64,000 nt of DNA, taken from the NCBI RefSeq assembly GCF_036008905.1, contig NZ_DASYMU010000010.1:301-64300 (forward strand), read 5' to 3'. The stretch's first letter is position 1. Each line of letters starts with the position of its first letter. Shown piece after piece: positions 50,213-64,000 of the stretch. Both the position numbers and the translations under genes were made by a program. The notes below the pieces were generated by a model. It saw nothing but the letters and a program-made list of their open reading frames with translations, was not told the origin of the DNA and ran no database searches. This DNA is from Amycolatopsis sp. Its GTDB lineage: Bacteria > Actinomycetota > Actinomycetes > Mycobacteriales > Pseudonocardiaceae.

Positions 50213-50389
50213 ATGGCCTGGACCAAGAGCAGTCACAGCGAAGGTGCCGAGCACTCCAACTGCGTCGAAGTTCTGCTCCAGCCCCAGGCCATCGCAGTGC
50301 GTGATTCCAAGGCCCCCGCAGCCGGTCACTTGACGTTGCCGAACCCGGCTTGGGCCGCCCTGATCACCTCACTGAACGCACGCGAGTAA
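50213..50389 (+). CDS. DUF397 protein (Scr2-like)
   Basis: WTKSSHS, NCVEV, VRDSK, AWAALI. Not listed as a separate ORF in the track. Confidence 0.92.
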   Translation: MAWTKSSHSEGAEHSNCVEVLLQPQAIAVRDSKAPAAGHLTLPNPAWAALITSLNARE

Positions 50390-51614
50390 TCAGGAAACCG
50401 GCGATAATCGTCGCCACCGCCGATGCGGCGAACAGCGCCCGATAGCCGCCGAGTTGCGCCAATAGCACCGTCGCGACGAGCGGCGCGACCACCTGCGGCA
50501 GCGAATTGGCGATGTTGACCACGCCCAAGTCCTTCGCGCGGTCCTCCGCGGCGGGCAAAACCGAGGTAAGGATCGCCAGCGCCACGGCCATATACGCGCC
50601 ATACCCGACACCGAGGAGCGGCGAGGCGATCAGTGCGGCGGTCCAGTTCTGCCAGAACGCCAAGATCAAGGCGGCGAGCGCCATCACCGCTGCCGCCGCG
50701 AGGACGAACGGCTTACGCCGCCGCGACCTGTCCGAGAAATGCCCCGCCGCGACCGCGCCGCCGATCAGCGCGACGCCGTAGAGGCCCATCATGATCAGCA
50801 GTCCGGTGTCCGGGTCTTCGAGGTGCACCGCGTCCCGGAGGAAGAACAACAGGAACAGCGTCCCGAGTGCGTTTCCGGTCCCGACCATGAAGTGACAGGC
50901 CCACGCCCACGCGAAATCCGGGTGCTCGCGCGGCGAGATCCGCAGGCTCGCCAGGACCTCCCGCACCTTGGCCGCGGGCCGGAACGCGGCGGGCAATGTG
51001 GCGTCGGGCGTGCGCAGTACGAACGCGATCGCGCCGAGCACCACGATCACCGCGCACGCGATGTATCCGCCCGGCAAGCTCGTGACCAGCACTGTCACCA
51101 GCACCGCACCCAGCACCGTGCCCAGCATCTGACTGATCCCGACGAGCCCGCCGATATGCGCACGCTGGTCCACCGGCACGCGGTCGGGGATCGCTGAGGT
51201 GAGTGTCGCGAGCATGCCGTTGAGCCCGGCGGAAACCAGGCACCAGCCGAGGATCATCACGCCGACGTTGCCCGCCGATGCGAGCACGAGCAGGCCGATC
51301 GCGCCGAGGGTCGCCCCGGCGAGCGTCCACGGGTGGCGGCGGCCGAACCGCGAACACGTCCGGTCCGACAGCAGCCCGATCAGGGGGTTCGCGACGAGCG
51401 ACACCAACGCGCCGACGCCGGTCACCAGACTGAAAACGAACTCCTTGTTCGCGGAGTCCAGCAGCTCGGCCTGCGTCGGGAGCAGCACCTGGATCGGCGC
51501 GTAGATCCCGAGCCAGAGCCCGATGTTCGCGAAGAACAGCAGGCTCATCCAGCTCTTGCGGACATGGATGGTCGGCTCGGCGAGCGCCGCCGGTCTGCCT
51601 TCGACTTCAGTCAT
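50364..51614 (-). CDS. MFS transporter (sugar/glycoside type)
   Basis: GLLSDRTCSRFGRRHPW, SDRSRRRK, AKDLGVVNIANSLPQ; ATG 51614 overlaps the GH1 stop. Confidence 0.9.
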   Translation of the reverse strand: MTEVEGRPAALAEPTIHVRKSWMSLLFFANIGLWLGIYAPIQVLLPTQAELLDSANKEFVFSLVTGVGALVSLVANPLIGLLSDRTCSRFGRRHPWTLAGATLGAIGLLVLASAGNVGVMILGWCLVSAGLNGMLATLTSAIPDRVPVDQRAHIGGLVGISQMLGTVLGAVLVTVLVTSLPGGYIACAVIVVLGAIAFVLRTPDATLPAAFRPAAKVREVLASLRISPREHPDFAWAWACHFMVGTGNALGTLFLLFFLRDAVHLEDPDTGLLIMMGLYGVALIGGAVAAGHFSDRSRRRKPFVLAAAAVMALAALILAFWQNWTAALIASPLLGVGYGAYMAVALAILTSVLPAAEDRAKDLGVVNIANSLPQVVAPLVATVLLAQLGGYRALFAASAVATIIAGFLITRVRSVR

Positions 51615-52929
51615 GCGTGACCAGCTTCCGGTACCACTCGTAGGAATCCTTCGGCGTCCTTCGCTGGTTCCCGTAGTCGATGTGCACGAGACCGAAGCGC
51701 GGCGCGTAGCCCTTGGACCACTCGAAGTTGTCGAGCAGCGACCAGACGAAATACCCGCGGATGTCGACACCGTGGTCCATCGCCTCACGGACCGCGGTGA
51801 GGTGACTTTCGAGGAAGTCGATGCGCTCGGGGTCGTGCACTTTGCCGTCCGGCCCGACCTCATCGGCGAAACTGCAGCCGTTCTCCGTGATGAAGATCGG
51901 CGGCAGGTTCTCCTTGTAGCGATCCTGGAACGACACCAGCATCTCGCGCAACGCGTGCGGCACGATCGGCGAGTCGTTGGTGGTCATCGGATAACCCTCG
52001 ATCGGGCGAAGTTCGAACGGAAGCGGATTGTCCGGTCCGGGTGCGGCGACGCCTTGGGGCTCGTAGTAGTTGACGCCGTAGAAGTCGAGGGGCTGCGCGA
52101 TGGCCGGAAGATCGTCGGCGAATCCCTCGGGCAGGTGACGCTGGATTTCCTCGGGGTAGGAGCCGAGGAGCACAGGCTCGGTGTACATCCGGTTGAGCAG
52201 CGCGTCGAGCCAGATCGCGGCGGCTTGGTCCTCATCGGTGTCGGCCGCGGGCCAGATCGGGCTGTGGTTGTTGGCCGTGCCGATATTGGTCGCGCCCGCC
52301 GCGCGCAGCGCCTGGACGGCGAGTCCGTGCGCGAGATTTTGGTAGTGCGCGGTGGGAATCGCGTCGAGCAGCAGGAACTGGCCGGGCGCGTACTCGCCGA
52401 TTCCGTAGCCGTAGATGGACGTGACCATCGGCTCGTTGATCGGGATCCACATCTTCACGCGGTCGGCGAACCGCTCTCCGAGGATCGACGCGTACTCGGC
52501 AAAACGCTCCGCGGTGTCGCGCGCGAGCCAGCCGCCGGCGTCCTCGAGAGCCTGCGGAGTGTCCCAGTGATAGAGCGTCGCGCAGGGCGCGATGCCCGCT
52601 TCGCAGACACCATCGAGTAGTCGATCATAGAAATCGAGGCCCTCTTTGTTCGCCGATCCCGTGCCGTCCGGCTGTATTCTGGGCCAGGCAAAGGACATTC
52701 GGTACGCCCCGACCCCAAGTTCCGCCATCAGGGCGATGTCTTCCGGGTAGCGGTGATAGTGATCGGCAGCTACCTTTGCGTGCTCACCGCGTGCGATCTT
52801 GCCCTCCGTGGCGGTGAACGTGTCCCAAATGGACGGTCCGCGGCCGCCTTCGCTCGTGGCGCCTTCGATCTGGAACGCCGAGGTGGACACACCCCAGACG
52901 AAATCGGGCGGGAAGGTCAAGTTTTCCAC
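51607..52929 (-). CDS. GH1 beta-glucosidase
   Basis: FVWGVSTSAFQIEG, YHWDTP, INEP (acid/base), ITENG (nucleophile), DNFEW. Confidence 0.95.
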   Translation of the reverse strand: MENLTFPPDFVWGVSTSAFQIEGATSEGGRGPSIWDTFTATEGKIARGEHAKVAADHYHRYPEDIALMAELGVGAYRMSFAWPRIQPDGTGSANKEGLDFYDRLLDGVCEAGIAPCATLYHWDTPQALEDAGGWLARDTAERFAEYASILGERFADRVKMWIPINEPMVTSIYGYGIGEYAPGQFLLLDAIPTAHYQNLAHGLAVQALRAAGATNIGTANNHSPIWPAADTDEDQAAAIWLDALLNRMYTEPVLLGSYPEEIQRHLPEGFADDLPAIAQPLDFYGVNYYEPQGVAAPGPDNPLPFELRPIEGYPMTTNDSPIVPHALREMLVSFQDRYKENLPPIFITENGCSFADEVGPDGKVHDPERIDFLESHLTAVREAMDHGVDIRGYFVWSLLDNFEWSKGYAPRFGLVHIDYGNQRRTPKDSYEWYRKLVTHD

Positions 52930-53069
52930 TGGCGATCTCTTTCATCGAGGCATCTTCAGAGGGCAAGTCAGGAGAACATGAAAAGTTCTCATATGCTAGG
53001 CCTTCACTCGTCCGTGGGGAAGCCCGTTCGCACGATAAAGTCGCTGATCAGCAGATTGAGGAGCCCGAC

Positions 53070-53711
53070 GTGTCCGACATCCAGGCCGCCAAGGCGACGG
53101 CCGAGGCGACCCCGCTTCGCCGGCAGCCGGTCCAGCAACGCAGTGCCAAACGTGTGGAGCAGATGCTCGACGCCAGCGCCCAGCTGATCGACGAGCTCGG
53201 CTACGACGCGCTGACGACAACGCTCATCGCGAAACGGGCGGGTGTGGCCGTCGGTTCGCTGTACCAGTTCTTCCCCGACAAGCGCGCTGTCGTGCAGGCG
53301 CTGACCCAGCGAAACCTCGAACGCTTCATCGCTTCGGTGACCGAGCGGCTCGCCACCATGGACCACGGGCACTGGTGGGACGTCGTCGACTCGATCCTCG
53401 ACATCTACCTCCGCATGCACCGCGAGATCCCCGGATTCTCGAAGGTGCACTTCGGTGACGTCGTCGACAGACAGTTGCTCGACGAGAGCCGGGACAACAA
53501 CACCGTGCTCGTCGACGCACTCGCGGAAATCCTGACGCCGAAGCTCGGCTTCCCGCCGGACGACCTGCGGTTCGCGCTGACGATCGCCAACGAAACGGCG
53601 GACGCGCTGTTGAAATTGGCCTTCCGACGCGATCCGCGCGGCGACGAGCAGATCGTCACGGAGACGAAATACGTGGTCAAACGCTATTTGGCGAGCAAGT
53701 TCGGCGAGTAG
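53070..53711 (+). CDS. TetR-family regulator
   Basis: RRQPVQQRS, TTTLIAKRAGVAVGSLYQFFPDK. Confidence 0.94.
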   Translation: MSDIQAAKATAEATPLRRQPVQQRSAKRVEQMLDASAQLIDELGYDALTTTLIAKRAGVAVGSLYQFFPDKRAVVQALTQRNLERFIASVTERLATMDHGHWWDVVDSILDIYLRMHREIPGFSKVHFGDVVDRQLLDESRDNNTVLVDALAEILTPKLGFPPDDLRFALTIANETADALLKLAFRRDPRGDEQIVTETKYVVKRYLASKFGE

Positions 53712-53717
53712 TCCCCA

Positions 53718-53751
53718 AGTTGTCCACAGGCATCCACATCTGTGGACAACT
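53718..53751. repeat. Inverted repeat built from two perfect DnaA boxes around a degenerate third
   Basis: TTGTCCACA (53720-53728), GCATCCACA (53730-53738), TGTGGACAA (53741-53749). Confidence 0.75.
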
Positions 53752-53754
53752 AAC

Positions 53755-54945
53755 TCACCCGAAGTTCTTGCCTTCGCCGCGGTAAGTCGGGACGGTTCGC
53801 TCGACCCGATCGCCGACGACGATGTGGTACGCGGTGAAGCGCTCGGCGAGTTCGCCGGCCTTGGAGTGGCGCAGCCAGACGCGGTCGCCGAGTTTCAGCG
53901 ACCGCGCGGCTTTGCCCACCACGGGGGTCTGCACTTCGCCGGCGCCTTCGAGCGGAAGCATGCCGAGCCCGGCGGGGAGGTACGGCGACGGGCGCCGCGA
54001 GATCTCGTTCGGGCCGGAACCGATGTAGCCGCCGGAAAACAGCGTCGCGATGTTCTTCGACGGCCGCCGCACCACGGGCAACGCGAAGAGCGCGGCGGGC
54101 TGCGGCTTGAAGCGCGAGTAGAAGTCGAACAGCGTCGGGCCGATCAGGCCGGAACCCGCGGCGATCTCGGTCACCGCGGCTTCCGCGCCGGTCGTCTCGA
54201 TGCTGCCGGTGCCGCCGCCGTTGACGAACTCGATGTCGGTCACCGCGCGCACGGCCTTCACCGCCGCGGCACGCCGCTTCGCGAGTTCGGCGGCCGAGCG
54301 GATCTGCATCCAGTGGACGATCGCGTTCTTGACGGCGTTGCCCGCGGTGTCGCCGAGACCGGCGATCTGACCTTCGTAGGCCATCATGCCGGAGACCTGG
54401 AAACCCTTACGTGACAACACAATCCTTGCGAGTTCGGCGGCCTGCTTCGGGGTGAACACCGGCGAGCGCCGGGTGCCGACATGCAGGCCGGGGAGCGGGC
54501 GCCACGACGCGTCGAGCTCGAGGCAGACCCGGATTTCGGGGTGGTCGTGGCCGAGCGCGGAGTCGACGAGGTCGAGATGCGCCGGCGAATCGATCATGAT
54601 CGAGATCGCCGCGCGGGCCTTGTCGCTGGCCGCCAGCCGACGCAGCGCGCCGTGATCGGCGGTCGGGTACGCGACCACGATGTCGTCGGTGGTGCCCAGC
54701 TCGACGTGCCAAAGCGCCTCGGCGAGCGAGTAGCACATCAGGCCTTCGAAGCCGGGCATCGCGAGGACGCGCTCCAGCAGATACCGGCACCGCACGGACT
54801 TGCTCACGACGCGGATCGGCTTACCGGCCGCGCGGCGGGCGAGGGCGGCCGCGTTGGCGTCGAACGCCGCGAGATCGACGATTGCCAAGGGCGGGTCGAG
54901 ATCCTTGGTCGCCAGGTCGAACGGCGTCGCGGTTCCTGAGGTCAC
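53755..54945 (-). CDS. DSD1/alanine-racemase-fold PLP enzyme (amino acid deaminase/aldolase)
   Basis: PIRVVSKSVR (PLP Lys), MAYEGQ, NGGGTGS, EIAAGSG, AGEVQTP, RHSKAGE. Start estimated. Confidence 0.85.
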   Translation of the reverse strand: MTSGTATPFDLATKDLDPPLAIVDLAAFDANAAALARRAAGKPIRVVSKSVRCRYLLERVLAMPGFEGLMCYSLAEALWHVELGTTDDIVVAYPTADHGALRRLAASDKARAAISIMIDSPAHLDLVDSALGHDHPEIRVCLELDASWRPLPGLHVGTRRSPVFTPKQAAELARIVLSRKGFQVSGMMAYEGQIAGLGDTAGNAVKNAIVHWMQIRSAAELAKRRAAAVKAVRAVTDIEFVNGGGTGSIETTGAEAAVTEIAAGSGLIGPTLFDFYSRFKPQPAALFALPVVRRPSKNIATLFSGGYIGSGPNEISRRPSPYLPAGLGMLPLEGAGEVQTPVVGKAARSLKLGDRVWLRHSKAGELAERFTAYHIVVGDRVERTVPTYRGEGKNFG

Positions 54946-55034
54946 AATGGCTACGGTACGACAGAAAAGCTTGAAACGCGAATACCATTCACTTATGGTT
55001 TCGGAACTCAGACTCTGAATGGATGGGCCCGCAG

Positions 55035-56342
55035 ATGACACGGTGGACGAACTGGGCCGGTACGGCGACGGCCGTCCCGCAGCGTGTGCACAAACCACGC
55101 AGCACCCCCGAGCTCGCCGAAGTCGTCGCGAACGCGGCGGTCGAAGGCCGGAAAATCAGGCCCTGGGGCAGCGGACATTCGTTCACGCCCATCTGCGTCG
55201 CCGAGTCGGACGCCGTCGACCTGACGAATTGGACGGGGATCGCTTCCGCCGATGTCAGCACCGGCTTAGTGACCGTTCGGTCGGGAACCACGATCAAAGT
55301 TCTCAACGCAGAGCTCGATCACCTCGGCCTGGGTCTCATCAATCTGGGTGACATCGACGCGCAGACCGTCGCCGGCGCGATCTCGACCGGCACCCACGGC
55401 ACCGGCGCCCGGCTCGGCGGCCTCGCGACGCAGGTCGCCGCGCTGGAAATCGTCCTCGCCGACGGCTCCGTAACGCACTGCTCGGCCGACCACCGCCCCG
55501 ACCTTTTCGCCGCCGCCCGCGTCGGCCTGGGCGCGCTCGGCGTCATCTCGACGGTGACGCTGCAGTGCGAAAAGGCGTTTTGCCTGTCCGCGCAGGAGCG
55601 TCCGGAGCCGCTGGAACAGGTGCTCGAAAGCTTCGACGAACTCGCCGCGTCGAACGACCACTACGAGTTCTACTGGTTCCCGTACGGCAGCAACGCGCTG
55701 GTCAAGCAAAACAACCGGCTGCCAGCGGGCGCCGAATGTCAGCCGCTGAGCAAGGCACGGCAGTTCCTCGACTACGAGATCATGGAGAACGTCGCGTTCG
55801 GCAGTTTCTGCCGCATCGGCCGCGCGATGCCGCGCCTGGTGCAGCCGCTCGGACGCATCGCGTCGTCGAGCCTTTCGTCCCGTGACTACAGCGACGTGTC
55901 GCATCGCGTGTTCGTGACGCACCGAGCGGTCAAGTTCGTCGAGTCGGAATTCGCTGTTCCACGTGAATCACTGCACGACGTCCTCGCCGAACTGCGCGCG
56001 CTGGTGCCGACACTGGAAAACCCGGTGATGTTCCCGGTCGAGGTACGCGTCGCCGCGGCCGACGACATCTGGCTTTCCACGGCGAACGGGCGGGACTCAG
56101 CGTACATCGCGATCCACCAGTACGTCGGCATGCCGTACCGCGAGTACTTCGCGGGCTTCGCGTCGATCGTCGGCCAGGTCGGCGGGCGGCCGCACTGGGG
56201 CAAGATGCACGACCTCGACGCGTCGACCCTGCGCGAGCGCTACCCGCACTTCGACGACTTCCTGCAGGTCCGCAAGGAAGTCGACCCGGCAGGCGTTTTC
56301 ACCAACGCCTACCTGGACCAGGTGTTAGGTCCGGTCTCGTAG
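55035..56342 (+). CDS. FAD-linked D-arabinono-1,4-lactone/L-gulonolactone oxidase-family protein
   Basis: WTNWAG, GSGHSF (covalent FAD His), GAISTGTHGTG, FPVEVR, GRPHWGK. Confidence 0.92.
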   Translation: MTRWTNWAGTATAVPQRVHKPRSTPELAEVVANAAVEGRKIRPWGSGHSFTPICVAESDAVDLTNWTGIASADVSTGLVTVRSGTTIKVLNAELDHLGLGLINLGDIDAQTVAGAISTGTHGTGARLGGLATQVAALEIVLADGSVTHCSADHRPDLFAAARVGLGALGVISTVTLQCEKAFCLSAQERPEPLEQVLESFDELAASNDHYEFYWFPYGSNALVKQNNRLPAGAECQPLSKARQFLDYEIMENVAFGSFCRIGRAMPRLVQPLGRIASSSLSSRDYSDVSHRVFVTHRAVKFVESEFAVPRESLHDVLAELRALVPTLENPVMFPVEVRVAAADDIWLSTANGRDSAYIAIHQYVGMPYREYFAGFASIVGQVGGRPHWGKMHDLDASTLRERYPHFDDFLQVRKEVDPAGVFTNAYLDQVLGPVS

Positions 56343-56769
56343 GGCGAAGCCGCCTGATGACGTAGTAATTCGTCGCCACGACCAACAGCGTGATGACGCT
56401 GAATGTCAGGTACAAGCCGGTGAGCACGCCGAACTGCGTTGTGATCACCACGAGAACCGCACCGGAGACCAGGCCACACAGCAGGCCCATGATCCCCAGC
56501 GCGGACACCAACGCGCGAAGTCCACGCGCGCGGTTCTCGTCCAACGATCCGGTCGACACACACCTCGGTCCGCCGAGCACCGCGATGCCGATCACCAGCA
56601 GGCACAGGTCTACGGCCGCCGCGAGGACGATCACGACGGCCATCATCGGGTGCTGCTCCGCTACCGGAAGCTTGTTGCCGATCCACACGACCTGGAATCC
56701 GAGCATGACGCTGAGGAAGATCGAGATGATCCCCATCCCGCGACTTTCAGCTCGGATCTTCCGCAGCAT
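56299..56769 (-). CDS. Hypothetical 4-TM membrane protein
   Basis: Four hydrophobic segments; overlaps the oxidase 3' end by 44 bp. Confidence 0.6.
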   Translation of the reverse strand: MLRKIRAESRGMGIISIFLSVMLGFQVVWIGNKLPVAEQHPMMAVVIVLAAAVDLCLLVIGIAVLGGPRCVSTGSLDENRARGLRALVSALGIMGLLCGLVSGAVLVVITTQFGVLTGLYLTFSVITLLVVATNYYVIRRLRPTRPDLTPGPGRRW

Positions 56770-56879
56770 CCGAGGGGAAATCCAGCGGTAATCCGGCGAT
56801 TCGATGCCGCATCCTTAACGTTGTGACGTGAGCGCAGCTAGGTGGGTGGCTCGTGACCATAGGCAGTGCCGCGCGGGAT

Positions 56880-57530
56880 CTAGAGCTGCTGGGTGGCTTC
56901 TTCGATGGAGGCGTCGCCCGAGATGAGCTCGATGGTCCGCTTGATCGACTTCGGCGCGTTCAGCAACGCGACGACCACGGCCGCCACGTCGTCGCGCGGC
57001 ACGGGGCCGCGGCCGGTCTTGTCGGCGATCAGGACCTTGCCGGTGCCCGGGTCGTTCGTCAGGGCGCCCGGCCGGAGGATCGTCCAGTCCAGATCCCGCT
57101 CGCGCAGGTCGTCCTCGGCGGCCTTCTTCGCCTTGAGGTAGACCGCGAAGGTCGGGTCGAGGCCCGGGGCGTCCGGATTGTCCGCACCCATCGAGCCGAT
57201 CTGGATGTGCCGCCTGACCCCGGCCTGCTCGGCAGCCGCGGCGAAGAGTGCGGCTGCGGCGCGGTCCACAGTGTCCTTGCGTTCGGTTCCGCTGCCCGGG
57301 CCGGCGCCGGCGGCGAAGACCGCGGCATCCGCTCCCGAAAGGACAGCGGCGACCGTGTCCACATCGGACTGCTCGAGGTCGAGCACCACCGGCTCGGCCT
57401 TCAACGCTTCGAGCTTGCCCGTCTGCTCGGGCTTCCGGATGATCCCGACCGCCTGATCACCGCGCTCGGCGAGCAACTTCTCCAGCCGAAGCGCGATCTG
57501 ACCATGTCCACCTGCAATAACGACTCGCAT
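56880..57530 (-). CDS. Atypical SDR / NAD(P)-binding protein
   Basis: IAGGHGQIA, FAAGAGPGSG, WTILRPG. Confidence 0.9.
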   Translation of the reverse strand: MRVVIAGGHGQIALRLEKLLAERGDQAVGIIRKPEQTGKLEALKAEPVVLDLEQSDVDTVAAVLSGADAAVFAAGAGPGSGTERKDTVDRAAAALFAAAAEQAGVRRHIQIGSMGADNPDAPGLDPTFAVYLKAKKAAEDDLRERDLDWTILRPGALTNDPGTGKVLIADKTGRGPVPRDDVAAVVVALLNAPKSIKRTIELISGDASIEEATQQL

Positions 57531-57548
57531 ACAGCGAGCCTAACCCCA

Positions 57549-58229
57549 TCAGTCGACGTCGGCAGGGACCTCGGTGACGGCGAGCAGGTGCTCGTAGACC
57601 ATCTCGTTCATCCAGCGCGAGATCGGGTCCTCGTCGAGGAGGATGCGCTCGGTGCGGCCCTCGAGGTCGAGGTCGATCATCGCGTTCGGGTCGGCGGTCA
57701 CCACGGCGAGGCCGTACGCACGGGCGCGCGGCAGACAGTTGACGACGTAATCCTCTGTCAGTACGGCGGGCGACGGCAGCACCATCGCGGCCTCCCCGTA
57801 CCGGGCGAACGGAACCGCGGAGGCCATCGCGGTGCGCCAGTGCCGGCCGACCGCGATGACGCCGATGATCTCGGCGGCAGCCGCGGGTGCGGTTCCAGCG
57901 AACTCTGGCCAAGTCCAGGTGTCGACGGTGGCGCGATCGGCGACCGGGCCGAAGCCCATCGCGATGCGCTCCGCGTGCACGTCGGTACGGAGCTTCGCGA
58001 CCACGCAGACCTTCCGGCCGAGCATGGCCATCTCCGGCAGCACGACGCCGTCCCACCCGAGAAGGGCGGCGGCTTCGCGAGCCAGCTCGTCGACGGACGC
58101 GGGCAGCTCGAGTGGCGGCACCACACGACTCGGCAGCGACCGGCTGTTCTTGGTTCCGCCGGTCACCGCGATGTTGTGAGGTGTTGGTGTAGCCGCCACG
58201 AGTCCGCCTCCTTCAAATTCCTGAACCAC
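57549..58229 (-). CDS. Hypothetical protein
   Basis: About 215-226 aa ORF with protein-like composition; start uncertain (GTG near 58199 after AGGAGG). Confidence 0.7.
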   Translation of the reverse strand: MVQEFEGGGLVAATPTPHNIAVTGGTKNSRSLPSRVVPPLELPASVDELAREAAALLGWDGVVLPEMAMLGRKVCVVAKLRTDVHAERIAMGFGPVADRATVDTWTWPEFAGTAPAAAAEIIGVIAVGRHWRTAMASAVPFARYGEAAMVLPSPAVLTEDYVVNCLPRARAYGLAVVTADPNAMIDLDLEGRTERILLDEDPISRWMNEMVYEHLLAVTEVPADVD

Positions 58230-58631
58230 TGTGTTGAAGCTGTGTGCTCGGTAAAAGCTGTGCTCCTGATCCCCCCGGAAAGGGGCACATGACTTTGGTA
58301 CCAGTGCGACAAGGCGTGGTCGCCGGGTAACGAGAGTGGCTGCGATCGGCGGACGTCCTCGGTCGGTGACCGGTCGACGAGCGGTTGGGGACTTCAGCCC
58401 GACCGTGCCGCCGTACGGGTGAGACGAAGCTGAACGGTCCGCCGCAGGTCGGCGCGGGTGGCCCGGATCACGTCCACGGCAAAGGAACCAAGCGGTTGCG
58501 CCGAACAGCCTAATATCGACGTGAATCCACAGTGGACGTCACCGGTCCGGGGTGACGTTCACCGCAGCGGGTGTCGTACTGCCGGGTTTAGGGTTACTGA
58601 CCAGTCACATGTCGCTTGCGATGGAGGATCG

Positions 58632-59696
58632 ATGCGCTCGCCGAAGGACTTCTTCGCCCCGCTGGCCCTCGGGGCACCGGAACCGCTCCGCGAAATTCCC
58701 GTGCCGCCGTCGAGGATGATCCACTTCTTCGACCCGAGCAACGAGAAGATGGCGGCGAAGGCACCGGACATCGCGAAGAAGGTCGATGTCCTGCTCGGGA
58801 ACCTCGAGGACGCCGTGCGCGCCGACCGCAAGGAAGCCGCGCGCGACGGGCTGGTGGCGATCGCCAAGGCCAACGACTTCGGCAAGACGCAGCTGTGGAC
58901 CCGCATCAACAGCCTCGACTCGCCGTGGGCGCTCGACGACCTGATCACGCTCGTCACGGAGATCGGCGACAAGCTCGACGTCATCATGGTGCCGAAGGTC
59001 GAAGGCGCCCAGGACATCCACTACGTCGACCGCCTGCTGGCGCAGCTCGAAGCGCGCGCCGGGCTCACGAAACCGTTGCTGGTGCACGCGATCCTGGAGA
59101 CCGCGAGCGGTGTCGCGAACGTCGAGGAGATCGCCGGCGCGAGCCCGCGGATGCAGGGAATTTCGCTCGGCCCGGCCGACCTCGCCGCGAGCCGCCGGAT
59201 GAAGACCACCCGCGTGGGTGGCGGCCACCCGGGTTATCTGGTGCGTACCGACCCCGTCGGCGAGGACATCAACGAAGGCCGCACGACCTACCAGCAGGAC
59301 CTGTGGCACTACACCGTCGCGCGCATGGTCGACGCCTGCGCGGCGCACGGAATCCTGCCGTACTACGGGCCGTTCGGGGACATCCGCGACGTCGTCGGCT
59401 GCGAAGACCAGTTCCGCAACGCGTTCATCCTCGGCTGCGTCGGCGCGTGGAGCCTGCACCCGGTGCAGATCGACATCGCGAAGAGGGTTTTCTCGCCCGC
59501 GCCTGAAGAAGTCGCCTGGGCCCGCAAGGTGATCAAGGCCATGGGCGACGGCACCGGTGCGGTGATGCTCGATGGCAAGATGCAGGATGACGCTTCCTAT
59601 AAGCAATGTCTCGTCGTGGCGGAGCTGGCCGACGCGCTCGCCGAGGACGACCCCGAACTCGCCAAGGCGTATGCCGACGCGTCCACGGAGGACTGA
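58632..59696 (+). CDS. mcl: Malyl-CoA/beta-methylmalyl-CoA/citramalyl-CoA lyase (Chloroflexus-type, CitE fold)
   Basis: [69 protein letters not shown]; closely resembles Chloroflexus Mcl as remembered. Confidence 0.82.
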
Positions 59697-59698
59697 TC

Positions 59699-60571
59699 AT
59701 GACCGAGTTGAGACCACGCCGTTCCGTCCTCTACATGCCCGGCGCGAACGAACGTGCGTTGGAGAAGGCCAAAACCCTCGACGCCGACGCGCTGATCTTC
59801 GACCTCGAAGACGCCGTCTCCCCGGACGCCAAGGAAACCGCCCGCGAACGCGTCTGCGCCGCCGCGGCCTCCGGCGACTACGGCCGTCGTGAGGTGACCA
59901 TCCGCGTCAACGGCATCGACACCGGCTGGCACGACGCCGACCTCCGCGCCGCCGCCCAAGCCGGGCCGGCCGCCGTCGTGGTGCCCAAGGTGAACTCGGC
60001 GCGCGAGGTGAACAACATCGAGCGCGCGCTGGAACTCGGCGGCGCGCCGGACCACATGAAGATCTGGGCGATGCTCGAAACCCCGGTCGCGATGCTGCAC
60101 GCGGAGGAAATCGCCGCCGCCAGCGAGCGGTTGACCGTGTTGGTGATGGGGACGAACGATCTCGCGAAGGAGCTGTACGCGGAGTTCGTGCCAGGGCGCG
60201 CGCCGTTGATGGGCGGGTTGTCGCTGGCGCTGCTGGCCGCGCGGGCGACCGGGAAGGTGATCCTCGATGGCGTGTACAACGACGTCAAGGATCTTGAGGG
60301 GTTCGAGGCGGAATGCTTGCAGGGCAGGCAATACGGCTTCGACGGGAAGACGTTGATCCATCCTGGGCAGCTCGAGGCGTGCAACCGGCTGTTCGCGCCT
60401 TCGGCGGAGGAGATCGAGCGGTCGCGGCGGATCATCGAGGCGTTCACCCAGGCTCAGGTGGAGGGTCGCGGAGTGGTCACTGTGGACGGTCGGATGATCG
60501 AGAATCTCCACGTCGACAACGCGAAGCGGATCCTCGCGCTGGCCGAGGCGATCGGCAATGCCTCGGACTAG
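59699..60571 (+). CDS. mcl2: CitE-fold CoA ester lyase, (3S)-malyl-CoA thioesterase-like
   Basis: RRSVLYMPG..RALEKA, FDLEDAV, WAMLET, MGTNDLAKEL, DGVYN, FDGKTLIHP, GRMIENLH; resembles Rhodobacter Mcl2 as remembered. Confidence 0.72.
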   Translation: MTELRPRRSVLYMPGANERALEKAKTLDADALIFDLEDAVSPDAKETARERVCAAAASGDYGRREVTIRVNGIDTGWHDADLRAAAQAGPAAVVVPKVNSAREVNNIERALELGGAPDHMKIWAMLETPVAMLHAEEIAAASERLTVLVMGTNDLAKELYAEFVPGRAPLMGGLSLALLAARATGKVILDGVYNDVKDLEGFEAECLQGRQYGFDGKTLIHPGQLEACNRLFAPSAEEIERSRRIIEAFTQAQVEGRGVVTVDGRMIENLHVDNAKRILALAEAIGNASD

Positions 60572-62551: not shown

Positions 62552-63922
62552 TCAAGGCCAGGGAAGTTGGGCCGGTCGTACCCGTTCGAATGCCGCCGCA
62601 AGGCGGAGTACACCAAGATCATCAAAGCGTCGACCAGCTATTTGTAGCCCGACCGGTTGATTTTCACCCGTATAGCCGCAGTTCACCGACACCGCCGGCT
62701 GGCCGGACATGTTGTAGGGCACGGTGAACGCGATGTGCTCGAACGGGCGTTGCGGGTCGTTTGTCGGCGATGGGTGTTCCGCGGGCGGCGCGGACACCGG
62801 ACACACCGGCGAGAGCACGAAATCGAACGGTCCGGTGGCCTTCAGCGCGGCCACGCTGATGGCGTCGATCTGCGCGAAACCGGTGTACGTGTCGAGGCCC
62901 GAGATCCCGGCGCCGCTGGTGGCCCACTCGGCGATGTACGGCAGGACCTGTCGACGTCGCTCTTCCGGCACCTTCGAGAGGTCCGACCACGCGCGGACGC
63001 GCCAGAACCGGTCCAGTCCATCGAGCATTTCCCTGGTCAGGAACGGTTCGACCGGTTCAATCACCGCGCCGGCGGCTTCGAGCAACCGAGCCGCTTCGAC
63101 GACGGCCGCGCGGATCTCCGGCTCGACGTCCAGGCCCACGCCCGGATCGAGCTGCAGTCCTATCCGGACCCCGGCCAGGTCGACGTCGAGCGCGTCCCAC
63201 GTGATGTCCTCGGGCGGCAGGCTCAGCTGGTCGCGCGGGTCGGGGCGCGAAAGGACACTCATGAACAGCGCGGTGTCGGCGACCGTGCGGGTCATCGGCC
63301 CGGCGGCGCGGCCGAGGAACGGCGGGTCGACCGGTACGCGGCCGAAACTGGGCTTGAGGCCGACCAGTCCGCACCACCCGGCCGGCAGCCGGATCGAGCC
63401 GCCGATATCGGTGCCGACGTGCAGCGGGCCGTACCCGACAGCGGCGGCCACCGCCGCGCCCGCGCTGGAACCACCGGGCGTGCGCGTGGTGTCCCAAGGG
63501 TTCCTGGCGGCGGTGTGGAAGCTCGACAGGCCGGAGGTGAGCATGCCGTAGTCGGGCATCGTCGTCTTGGCCAGCAGGACACCGCCGGACTCGTGGACGC
63601 GAGCTGCGGCGGGAGCATCGGCATCGGCCGGGATCAGCTCGGTGCCCGCGGTGCCCAGCGGCACGGGCGTGCCGCGGGTGGCGATGTTCTCCTTGAGCGT
63701 CAACGGGATTCCGTCGATCGGTCCGAGTGGTTCGCCGCTCCGCCAGCGCGCCTCGGACGCCTTCGCTTCGGCGCGTGCGCTTGCCGGGTCGAACGCGTAC
63801 AGCGCGTGCAGCGTCGGTTCGAGCGCTTCGATCCTGGTGATCGCGTTCTCGGTGGCTTCGACCGGCGACAACGTGCCCGTCCGGTACGCAGCGATCAGCT
63901 CGACCGCGCTCAAATCCGGCAT
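62552..63922 (-). CDS. Amidase signature family protein
   Basis: LKENI, KTTMPDYG, TPGGSSAGAA, GTDIGGSIRLPA, GLKPS. Confidence 0.93.
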   Translation of the reverse strand: MPDLSAVELIAAYRTGTLSPVEATENAITRIEALEPTLHALYAFDPASARAEAKASEARWRSGEPLGPIDGIPLTLKENIATRGTPVPLGTAGTELIPADADAPAAARVHESGGVLLAKTTMPDYGMLTSGLSSFHTAARNPWDTTRTPGGSSAGAAVAAAVGYGPLHVGTDIGGSIRLPAGWCGLVGLKPSFGRVPVDPPFLGRAAGPMTRTVADTALFMSVLSRPDPRDQLSLPPEDITWDALDVDLAGVRIGLQLDPGVGLDVEPEIRAAVVEAARLLEAAGAVIEPVEPFLTREMLDGLDRFWRVRAWSDLSKVPEERRRQVLPYIAEWATSGAGISGLDTYTGFAQIDAISVAALKATGPFDFVLSPVCPVSAPPAEHPSPTNDPQRPFEHIAFTVPYNMSGQPAVSVNCGYTGENQPVGLQIAGRRFDDLGVLRLAAAFERVRPAQLPWP

Positions 63923-64000
63923 CTCAACTTCCCTCACTTTCGCCACTTCGTTCACATCAGCCTCAAAACGGGCCCAAAAACTTCAGAACATGTCGACATA

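Follow-up and report, generated by a model that had tools for sequence, protein, structure and literature searches.

Two described systems combine a flavoenzyme with a pyridoxal phosphate (PLP) enzyme. The SphR regulon of Pseudomonas aeruginosa comprises the ceramidase gene cerN, sphA and sphBCD (PA5324-PA5328, PA0845). SphBCD are described as a cytochrome c, an ALO homologue and an Ala-racemase-N homologue (PA5326 being the latter), and are induced 18-45 fold by sphingomyelin (PMC5150637). The sequence-only reading of the DNA considered here named sphC and sphD as the flavin oxidoreductase gene and the PLP aldolase-like gene of an operon that sphingosine induces. PMC3900636 bears this out, with a flavin oxidoreductase that is predicted and a PLP enzyme that is threonine-aldolase-like, and puts forward a scheme of C1 oxidation followed by aldol cleavage. 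In Pseudomonas, sphC is required for sphingosine metabolism and sphD is dispensable (PMC11398299).

The same two enzyme families occur in the Rv1769/Rv1771-type locus of Mycobacterium tuberculosis. Rv1771 is said to have a published in vitro L-gulono-1,4-lactone dehydrogenase activity, and its role in vitamin C synthesis reportedly rests on that in vitro activity only. PMC11505616 mentions the protein as an L-gulonolactone dehydrogenase. A locus of this type, which the sequence-only reading named for comparison, was recovered in M. riyadhense, laid out as PLP enzyme, M28 peptidase and ALO oxidase, with PLP and oxidase proteins 49% and 42% identical to those described below. It differs from our locus in the extra gene between the pair and a nearby IclR regulator, and no GH1, MFS, TetR or acylase gene was seen there.

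The window is a stretch of 64,000 nucleotides from a contig of the soil actinomycete Amycolatopsis sp. (NZ_DASYMU010000010.1). The five adjacent genes picked out earlier from the letters are all present where they had been placed (Table 1), and the gap between the divergent PLP and oxidase genes, estimated then at about 90 bp, measures 89 bp. The gene order is kept in every sampled Amycolatopsis genome, with syntenic flanking genes as well. Like the SphR regulon, the regulon to which these genes would belong has a fold-type III Ala-racemase-N PLP enzyme next to an ALO flavoenzyme of the same family. Each regulon also has a secreted N-deacylase and a component for uptake, roles that are predicted in the case of ours. 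The differences lie in the regulator (the AraC-type SphR in Pseudomonas, a TetR protein here), in the deacylase (a neutral ceramidase in Pseudomonas, a penicillin-acylase-family Ntn hydrolase in our regulon) and in GH1 and MFS, which the Pseudomonas regulon lacks. Ours looks like a so far undescribed, complete-looking route for dismantling glucosylceramide-type lipids, arranged around relatives of SphC and SphD.

Table 1. Genes and operator sites of the locus (positions in the window)
Feature	Position	Strand	Description
MFS transporter	50364..51611	-	415 aa; MFS_1 2e-38, MFS_2 3e-13
GH1 beta-glucosidase	51607..52929	-	440 aa; PF00232 3e-142, TIGR03356 563 bits
Degenerate operator copy ATGAAAAGTTCTCAT	52978..52992	.	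49 bp upstream of GH1, 78 bp upstream of tetR
TetR-family regulator	53070..53711	+	Pfam TetR_N + TetR_C_22
Fold-type III PLP enzyme, D-threonine-aldolase/DSD1-like ('amino acid deaminase/aldolase')	53755..54945	-	396 aa; GTG start; Ala_racemase_N
Operator GCGAATACCATTCAC	54978..54992	.	15-bp palindrome in 89-bp divergent promoter region
ALO-type FAD oxidoreductase	55035..56342	+	435 aa; FAD_binding_4 + ALO; TIGR01679 family

Candidate operator and further regulon members

The promoter region between the PLP and oxidase genes contains a 15-bp palindrome with the consensus G[TC]GAA-N5-TTCA[CT]. The copy at this locus (GCGAATACCATTCAC) is the sole match to the palindrome in the window, and it overlaps the spacer that follows the -35 box (TTGAAA) of the oxidase promoter. 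Nearly every Pseudonocardiaceae locus has the operator at the corresponding position, and Micromonosporaceae and Actinomadura have it upstream of the PLP gene. Whether or not GH1-MFS is present, orthologues of the TetR protein (44-84% identity) accompany the pair in four families, among them Pseudonocardiaceae and Micromonosporaceae, and TetR is presumed to be the repressor that binds the operator. Two further genes carry the operator upstream: that of a secreted acylase (in 24 of 25 genomes of Amycolatopsis and in 16 of 25 other genera) and that of an aldehyde dehydrogenase (21 of 24 Amycolatopsis genomes). A control palindrome site upstream of a GH16 gene was conserved in 0 of 10. Taken jointly with a role in glucosyl-sphingoid lipid breakdown, we regard it as an evenly balanced proposition that the five window genes, the acylase and the aldehyde dehydrogenase form one TetR-type regulon, with a phylogenetically conserved candidate operator. 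Because the acylase and the aldehyde dehydrogenase, both overlooked in the sequence-only reading, join the regulon, the scheme outlined there becomes more complete.

The acylase gene lies on another contig. Its product, which matches PF01804 (penicillin amidase) and F5/8 type C, has a PGA-like Ntn domain and a CBM32 sugar-binding domain as well as a signal peptide; its closest relatives among solved structures are penicillin G acylases, and those of the CBM32 are chitosan-binding modules. Judging by the PF01804 profile match, the enzyme is not of a known ceramidase family. Neutral ceramidase (PF04734) was not found in the genome, a weak negative given that a control search gave no match either. 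Penicillin G acylases prefer small aromatic acyl groups. Glycosphingolipid ceramide deacylase activity has reportedly been found in Nocardia. The reaction proposed for the acylase is the same as that of this activity and of the sphingolipid ceramide N-deacylase (SCDase) of Pseudomonas and Shewanella, in which the fatty acid is removed from a glycosphingolipid to leave the lyso form. SCDase and our acylase are both secreted and have a lectin-type domain, and our acylase differs in being a penicillin-amidase-family Ntn hydrolase. The aldehyde dehydrogenase is GabD2-like and scores as a succinic-semialdehyde dehydrogenase equivalog.

The PLP enzyme and oxidase pair

All PDB sequence matches of the PLP enzyme are D-threonine or D-3-hydroxyaspartate aldolases. 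The top four folds for its AlphaFold model (pLDDT 93.8) are the aldolases 4v15, 6qkb, 7yqa and 7dib (TM 0.74-0.85), and Lys50 aligns with the PLP lysine of the D-threonine aldolase group. That group binds a divalent metal through a His and an Asp or Cys of the C-terminal domain; in the family of our enzyme, His361 is nearly invariant and the residue two positions further is an invariant Lys, and the C-terminal domain is unaligned by sequence profiles. As modelled, the PLP enzyme folds like the D-specific beta-hydroxy-amino-acid aldolases. The group of D-threonine aldolase, D-3-hydroxyaspartate aldolase (BhcC) and DSD1, whose members act on D-alpha-amino-beta-hydroxy acids, has its fold and PLP lysine position in common with our enzyme, but identity is only 20-24%, a Pfam match to the C-terminal D-serine-dehydratase domain is missing, and the family has invariant motifs of its own (EGAGEVQTP and RH[AS]KAGE).

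Kinship with the Pseudomonas proteins, on which the earlier reading leaned, is at family level for the oxidase and only remote for the PLP enzyme. Against SphD, the PLP enzyme shows 24% identity (55 bits; hhalign probability 99.5%), and the family motifs EGAGEVQTP and RHxKAGE were looked for in SphD and are absent; by sequence, SphD is only a distant homologue, and close orthology was not found. The oxidase, on the other hand, is 35% identical to P. aeruginosa SphC over the full length. It matches ALO (3e-78), FAD_binding_4 (6e-25) and TIGR01679 (398 bits versus a cut-off of 292), and TIGR01678 as well. SphC nests within the PLP-linked oxidase family in the tree (support 98/97), with the oxidase paralogue of our own genome as a far outgroup, although the exact position of SphC is uncertain because it sits on a long branch. 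These comparisons support placing the window oxidase in the same PLP-linked family as SphC.

The two oxidases differ in their predicted location. SphC carries a Tat signal (MPSHLSRRQLLQ...), SphD apparently has an export signal as well, and SphC pairs with the cytochrome c SphB, whereas the window oxidase starts MTRWTNWAGT with no signal peptide and, like its partner, is predicted to be cytoplasmic. Among the loci compared, a Cytochrome_CBB3 gene was seen upstream of the oxidase gene only in Pseudomonas, and none accompanies the window oxidase. Among solved structures, those closest to the window oxidase are of alditol/glycerol oxidase and galactonolactone dehydrogenase. Alditol/glycerol oxidases (AldO 2vfr; 8ot8) have the same VAO-fold FAD_binding_4 + ALO architecture and oxidize a terminal CH2OH beside a substituted carbon, as is proposed for the window oxidase; they fall into another subfamily (E values from 1e-38 to 1e-49, versus 5e-81 for SphC) and are not known to be paired with a PLP enzyme.

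The pair is the conserved core of the locus. Of the 29 other Actinomycetota genomes with the PLP gene, 16 have the two genes side by side, as do 52 of 80 named loci; divergent, convergent and co-directional layouts all occur. Adjacency extends to Burkholderia, Chondrinema, Bacillus thuringiensis, Brevibacillus, Mycobacterium, Tsukamurella and Arthrobacter, and the pair is found across four phyla, including Actinomycetota and Bacteroidota. In the B. cereus group, it directly follows the sphingomyelinase locus plc-sph (cerA-sph), and in Burkholderia and Tsukamurella its neighbors include SphR-like AraC regulators, which are 39% and 34% identical to SphR. Other neighbors suggest that a small polar substrate fits better: permeases of NCS2/SLC23 type adjoin the pair in three unrelated taxa (Brevibacillus, Tsukamurella and Arthrobacter), and a HAD phosphatase gene follows it in one genome (G028).

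An alternative keeps the same enzyme logic, with a PLP step that cleaves or deaminates, and replaces the sphingolipid by an N-acylated beta-glucoside whose aglycone is an amino alcohol or amino polyol of small size and polar character; secondary metabolites of plants or microbes and derivatives of amino-sugar alcohols would be examples. The kinship of the acylase with penicillin G acylases and of its CBM32 with chitosan binders, the resemblance of the aldehyde dehydrogenase to succinic-semialdehyde dehydrogenase, and the action of ALO/alditol oxidases on polyols and sugar lactones all point the same way. However, no two of the three NCS2 permeases are orthologues, and this substrate therefore lacks the backing of a single conserved transporter. 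It also leaves unexplained why the pair adjoins sphingomyelinase in Bacillus, why SphR-like regulators flank it and why sphingosine induces SphC (PMC5150637). We consider it unlikely, with a real share of the probability nonetheless.

GH1 and MFS in relation to the pair

From its sequence, GH1 is a canonical beta-glucosidase, predicted to be cytoplasmic: the TIGR03356 score is at equivalog level (cut-off 478.5, reported also as 478), both catalytic glutamate motifs, NEP and ENG, are present (PINEPMV, ITENGCS), and the best PDB match is 8znv (1e-169). The true start of the MFS protein is the Met of MTEVEG, overlapping the GH1 stop in ATGA, and the transporter is weakly GPH/sucrose-symporter-like.

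These two genes could be an ordinary uptake operon for a beta-glucoside (e.g. cellobiose) that happens to lie beside an unrelated pair in a syntenic part of the core chromosome. GH1-MFS accompanies the pair in some Pseudonocardiaceae only and is missing from Prauserella, Saccharomonospora, Saccharopolyspora, Haloechinothrix and Actinokineospora, which keep oxidase-PLP-TetR in the same synteny; the synteny of the flanking genes and the canonical nature of GH1 also agree with a chance neighbor. In addition, the GH1-proximal site in Amycolatopsis (ATGAAAAGTTCTCAT) is only a degenerate operator. It reads ATGAG-N5-TTCAT towards GH1, lies inside a GAGAAC-N7-GTTCTC palindrome, and forms a block that is invariant across 12 Amycolatopsis loci. 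Against this, [CG]CGAA-N5-TTCA[CT] occupies the corresponding position downstream of the -10 box in 11 GH1-bearing loci of six other genera; the 15-bp operator of the PLP/oxidase promoter stands there 35-70 bp upstream of GH1, with few background matches in 1.57 Mb. In a related genus (G393), the genes form one string, MFS<-GH1<-acylase<-oxidase, followed by the operator, PLP-> and <-TetR, with gaps of 19-42 bp. An MFS orthologue directly follows the PLP gene, with no GH1, in two metagenome-assembled genomes (L058 and L064). Because of the common operator in six sister genera and the single operon-like string in G393, we hold it to be very improbable that GH1-MFS is a chance neighbor; a functional tie to the pair is supported.

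Least probable of all is that the oxidase is a sugar-1,4-lactone dehydrogenase making an ascorbate-like compound, as reported for Rv1771, with the PLP enzyme and the others unrelated. Its ALO domain, its TIGR01678/TIGR01679 matches, the galactonolactone dehydrogenases among its nearest solved structures and the Rv1771 activity mentioned above agree with this reading, but it cannot account for the pairing with a D-beta-hydroxy-amino-acid aldolase-like enzyme across four phyla, for co-regulation and operon fusion with acylase, GH1 and MFS, or for the role of SphC in sphingosine metabolism (PMC11398299).

Proposed breakdown of glucosylceramide-type lipids

The idea of sphingolipid catabolism, first raised from the sequence, is partly supported, by the oxidase family, the PLP fold, the tie to GH1-MFS and the sphingolipid-related neighbors; on the other side stand the remote kinship with SphD, the cytoplasmic enzymes that have no cytochrome c partner, the limited occurrence of GH1/MFS with the pair, and the permeases and phosphatases near the pair elsewhere. 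We hold about as strongly as we doubt that the regulon serves to degrade a 2-amino-1,3-diol lipid that is N-acylated and beta-glucosylated, with a substrate, step order and chemistry that we infer. The most likely substrates would be fungal or plant glucosylceramide (cerebroside), together with the free sphingoid bases that it yields.

In this scheme, the secreted penicillin-acylase-family enzyme would take off the fatty acid outside the cell, and the MFS transporter would bring in the deacylated glucosyl-sphingoid. GH1 could then remove glucose, freeing the C1 alcohol, which the ALO-type flavoenzyme would convert to the aldehyde and the GabD2-like aldehyde dehydrogenase to a D-configured 2-amino-3-hydroxy acid. 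Given the stereochemistry known for what serine palmitoyltransferase makes, a D-amino acid is expected when a sphingoid base is oxidized at C1. The PLP enzyme would finally cleave the product of C1 oxidation.

More tentatively, and with the doubt outweighing the confidence, this may be the first complete bacterial pathway of glucosylceramide catabolism, with a penicillin-acylase-family Ntn hydrolase as a new kind of glycosphingolipid N-deacylase and a lyase-independent route for destroying the sphingoid base, in which flavin oxidation at C1 and a D-specific PLP retro-aldol step yield glycine and a fatty aldehyde. If the scheme is true, the PLP/oxidase pair, from Mycobacterium to Bacillus and Burkholderia, would be a general bacterial module for the degradation of sphingoid bases, and SphCD of Pseudomonas would be an exported variant of that module.

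The PLP/oxidase pair and its neighbours

All five genes claimed by the sequence-only reading are present in the window, and the divergent genes for the PLP enzyme and the oxidase, which it had placed about 90 bp apart, are separated by 89 bp. Every close homologue with a name comes from Amycolatopsis (Pseudonocardiaceae), to which the genome is therefore assigned. The five-gene order is retained in every sampled Amycolatopsis genome; the flanking genes are retained as well, and thus synteny within the genus proves nothing alone. The three minus-strand genes in 56299-58229 converge with the oxidase gene, and synteny within the family holds for all three. A plus-strand ORF of 479 amino acids (56853-58292), Arg/Gly/Asp-rich and without a family match, looks spurious.

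Features of the window and of related loci (window coordinates unless a genome, contig or locus is named; G, genome, with G000 that of the window; C, contig; L, locus)
Feature	Position	Strand	Remarks
MFS transporter	50364-51611	-	True start overlaps GH1 stop in ATGA
GH1 beta-glucosidase	51607-52929	-	Above TIGR03356 equivalog cut-off; NEP and ENG motifs visible
GH1-proximal site	52978-52992		One-off variant ATGAG-N5-TTCAT; same register after -10 box; invariant block in Amycolatopsis
TetR	53070-53711	+	
Fold-type III PLP enzyme	53755-54945	-	GTG start
Operator, window copy	54978-54992		GCGAATACCATTCAC; PLP/oxidase intergenic region
ALO-type FAD oxidoreductase	55035-56342	+	Above TIGR01679 cut-off
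Small four-helix membrane protein	56299-56769	-	Apparent real gene
NmrA-like NAD(P)-binding protein	56880-57530	-	Apparent real gene
226-aa protein without assigned role	57549-58229	-	Apparent real gene
HpcH/CitE-type C-C lyases, two adjacent genes	58458-59696 and 59606-60571		
Amidase after the lyases	62552-63955	-	
Regulon acylase	G000:C184:11159-14407		Locus L130/L137
Second element before the aldehyde dehydrogenase, examples	L094/L132 upstream regions; G000:C139:88870-88920		
Operator sites of oxidase-less Actinomadura/Streptosporangiaceae MAG loci	L067 7938; L070 4160; L079 3371; L081 7939		

The PLP/oxidase pair is the conserved core of the locus. Among 300 Actinomycetota genomes drawn, the PLP gene occurs in 29 besides the window's own, and in 16 of these 29 the oxidase gene lies at most 2.5 kb away, in co-directional, convergent or divergent layouts (the tally includes the unpublished genomes G058 and G213; the conclusion is independent of both). 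In eight genomes, all from one large-genome genus, both genes are present but unlinked. The oxidase is beside the PLP gene in 52 of 80 named loci; PLP genes with no adjacent oxidase are found in Streptomyces, Kitasatospora, Actinomadura, Nonomuraea and others. The window's own genome has a second, unlinked PLP copy (G000:C245:19558-20715, 56% identity), with neither oxidase nor operator beside it. The two genes are neighbours, too, in Burkholderia arboris (with a cytoplasmic oxidase), in Chondrinema (Bacteroidota), in Bacillus thuringiensis and a second B. cereus-group record, and in Brevibacillus, Tsukamurella and Arthrobacter. The gene order of Rv1769-Rv1771, named for comparison in the sequence-only reading, is found in M. 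riyadhense, with an M28 peptidase gene between those for the PLP enzyme and the oxidase.

Neighbourhoods were drawn from genome searches, related loci and annotated plasmid records, and gene calls in the loci of other genomes are crude and GC3-based. The unpublished genomes G344 and G378 enter the family-level tallies, and G058, G121, G213 and G278 those at phylum level; no conclusion depends on any of these. Apart from TetR, GH1 and MFS, clustering of neighbour genes in 97 loci brought up no pathway gene that recurs; what else recurs (tmk, holB, topA, PRPP synthetase, bcp) is housekeeping synteny. The gcvT gene beside the pair in Tsukamurella was rejected as a glycine link, the pair being inserted there between pepB and gcvT, neighbours in the core gene order of mycobacteria. 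In a locus from another family (L022 10620-11050, genome G040), the PLP-TetR intergenic region is filled by imperfect tandem repeats of about 30 bp each (GGCCGAGGG[CT]CGGTCAGGGCTTGGCGGCCGGG...).

A shared predicted operator and the genes behind it

The 15-bp palindrome G[TC]GAA-N5-TTCA[CT], presumably bound by TetR, is conserved in the PLP/oxidase intergenic region across genera while its surroundings drift. The window alone has one match against 0.26 expected, which is not significant by itself. Among GH1-bearing loci, 11 from six genera other than Amycolatopsis have the same operator 35-70 bp before GH1, and in a twelfth locus it precedes a GH1 remnant; very few other matches occur in the 1.57 Mb of loci. 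The HpcH/CitE-type lyase genes, syntenic in Amycolatopsis, have no operator site. A palindrome before GH1 in Amycolatopsis (GAACATGAAAAGTTC), considered as a separate motif, was dropped: other genera do not have it, and a degenerate copy of the operator is the better reading. Between the GH1-proximal site and the tetR start, a second non-coding block (52995-53060; TCACTCG...GGGGAAGCCC...CG[AC]TAAAGTC) is conserved across Amycolatopsis loci and may be the tetR promoter or leader; CTCGTC...GACGAG pairing is possible there in most relatives, not in this window.

TetR is orthologous across Pseudonocardiaceae loci with or without GH1-MFS, and in Micromonosporaceae, and therefore goes with the pair. 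For GH1-MFS, the expectation of co-conservation with the pair fails by distribution alone, but regulatory sites argue that the two genes belong with it. The two genes occur in 17 loci, all from part of the Pseudonocardiaceae (Amycolatopsis, Sciscionella, Kibdelosporangium, Lentzea, Actinosynnema, Kutzneria, Crossiella); Prauserella, Saccharomonospora, Saccharopolyspora, Haloechinothrix and Actinokineospora have oxidase, PLP and TetR genes in the same place and no GH1-MFS. An MFS orthologue directly follows the PLP gene, without GH1, in two MAGs. The common operator ties GH1-MFS to the pair, as does a compact cluster in G393, from another Pseudonocardiaceae genus, where the order is MFS, GH1, acylase and oxidase on one side of a single operator, all four reading away from it, with a divergent PLP gene and a TetR gene convergent with the latter on the other. 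Gaps in the four-gene string are 19-42 bp. This arrangement, to us the decisive one, indicates that acylase, GH1 and MFS work with the pair, and that GH1-MFS is a chance neighbour is now unlikely.

A site of the form GTGAA-N5-TTCAC also stands about 60 bp upstream of PLP genes in Actinomadura and a Streptosporangiaceae MAG, with neither oxidase nor TetR nearby; the regulator for these loci may be encoded elsewhere in the genome.

An operator scan of the window's own genome returned 30 matches, versus 16 for the reversed control, and two passed a conservation test. The first is 75 bp upstream of a secreted, 1083-aa acylase of the penicillin-amidase family with a C-terminal F5/8-type-C (CBM32) domain. 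The site is kept before the orthologue in 24 of 25 Amycolatopsis genomes and in 16 of 25 other Pseudonocardiaceae genera (the count includes one locus from the unpublished G378), and five more have one-mismatch variants. In complete Amycolatopsis genomes the acylase is about 20-28 kb from the PLP gene. Phyletic co-occurrence is no more than suggestive: the PLP gene is present in 27 of the 29 genera with the acylase, versus 50 of 60 genera overall. The second match precedes a gene for a GabD2-like aldehyde dehydrogenase by about 85 bp, and 21 of 24 orthologous Amycolatopsis loci retain the site. A match near a GH16 gene is kept in none of 10 orthologous loci, which shows that the test discriminates. 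A fungal-wall regulon, suggested by matches near GH16, alpha-1,3-glucanase and other F5/8-type-C proteins, was rejected since the GH16 site is not conserved. Past the operator, ahead of the dehydrogenase start, all orthologous Amycolatopsis loci carry a further element (TACCG[AG]CGGTATG[CG]TGTACTCGTCGGTAAC), even where the operator is missing, and a related one (CTACC..GGTAGCGTGCGC) precedes the acylase.

A candidate route and its possible substrates

The AlphaFold model of the PLP enzyme (pLDDT 93.8) comes closest to D-threonine aldolases and D-3-hydroxyaspartate aldolase, followed by D-3-hydroxyaspartate and D-serine dehydratases, and Lys50 aligns with the PLP lysine. Such enzymes act on D-configured 2-amino-3-hydroxy acids. 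By known stereochemistry, a natural sphingoid base oxidized at C1 would yield an acid of this kind, because the former serine hydroxymethyl becomes the carboxylate.

We infer the substrate, all of the chemistry and the identity of the operator-binding protein. Each enzyme would deal with a single functional group in a molecule of the glucosylceramide type. The secreted acylase would free the amine needed by the PLP enzyme, MFS would import the lyso-glucolipid and GH1 would free the C1 hydroxyl needed by the oxidase; oxidase and aldehyde dehydrogenase would then produce the D-2-amino-3-hydroxy acid, to be cleaved or deaminated by the PLP enzyme. Genera with the pair and TetR alone would handle free amino-diols. 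We consider it quite probable that these genes together make up a single pathway, with an N-acyl, beta-glucosyl amino alcohol as its substrate; that this compound is a sphingoid is an evenly balanced call.

The statement that Pseudomonas sphC and sphD belong to a sphingosine-induced operon is borne out: sphBCD is induced by sphingosine and SphR, and C1 oxidation followed by aldol cleavage was proposed (PMC3900636). For comparison, the sph locus was recovered from a metagenome contig, with the published SphC signal peptide used as a degenerate DNA pattern. The kinship suggested from sequence stands for the oxidase. SphC is 35% identical to the window oxidase over its full length, closer than any solved enzyme, and in the tree it nests, on a long branch, inside the PLP-linked oxidase family with Burkholderia, Chondrinema and Bacillus members (98/97 support), with a paralogue from the window's own genome as a far outgroup. 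An ascorbate-type role, the alternative in the sequence-only reading, is now unlikely. On the PLP side the kinship is distant: SphD is homologous by hhalign (probability 99.5%) but only 24% identical, and lacks the invariant C-terminal motifs of the window family. SphC, a Tat substrate (PMC6085387), and apparently SphD carry export signals, which the window proteins do not have, and their genes come after one for a cytochrome c. The SphR regulon (secreted ceramidase, uptake protein, ALO oxidase, fold-III PLP enzyme) parallels the proposed route.

Further, independent links to sphingolipids come from neighbours of the pair. In two B. cereus-group records it comes immediately after cerA (phospholipase C) and sph (sphingomyelinase C), on the same strand; in this group (L118 5868-10375, from B. 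thuringiensis, and L128) it starts 110 bp downstream of these cereolysin AB genes, an arrangement for which we found no paper. Regulators with the architecture of SphR, an AraC protein with an Arabinose_bd domain, adjoin the pair in Burkholderia (39% identical to SphR) and directly precede it in Tsukamurella (34%). These regulators are supportive, not decisive, because AraC paralogues are numerous.

A small polar N-acyl glucoside is a live alternative as substrate. The closest solved relatives of the acylase are penicillin G acylases; its CBM32 is closest to chitosan-binding modules of Paenibacillus glucanase/chitosanase (E 1e-27), and is missing in about half of the orthologues of other genera. 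By score the aldehyde dehydrogenase is a succinic-semialdehyde dehydrogenase, in one genome (G028) the gene after the pair encodes a HAD phosphatase, and a neutral ceramidase was not found in the window's own genome, a weak negative. NCS2/SLC23-type permeases beside the pair in Brevibacillus, Tsukamurella and Arthrobacter also point to a polar substrate, but they are not orthologous to one another.

Novelty and implications

In the literature searched we found no paper that characterizes the pair or a ceramide deacylase gene of actinomycetes biochemically, proves the SphC/SphD scheme by biochemistry or describes the actinobacterial regulon; one paper remarks only that STRING co-occurrence extends to Actinobacteria and Firmicutes (PMC11398299). 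What we rate as new is the cytoplasmic, TetR-controlled form, extended by acylase, glucosidase, transporter and dehydrogenase.

Sphingoid bases are antimicrobial host lipids and abundant components of fungal and plant membranes. To our knowledge, how bacteria dispose of them is unsettled: we know of no identified product of Pseudomonas SphC and no biochemical demonstration of the oxidase-plus-aldolase scheme. Here both enzymes come in soluble, cytoplasmic form, within a defined regulon that has a predicted operator and also contributes candidates for deacylase, importer, glucosidase and aldehyde dehydrogenase. The whole route is therefore testable with purified proteins and simple inducers. 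If true, it may be a source of new enzymes for making lyso-glycosphingolipids, and both the M. tuberculosis 'vitamin C' locus (Rv1769-Rv1771) and the genes after the sphingomyelinase in the B. cereus group would be reassigned to host-lipid catabolism.
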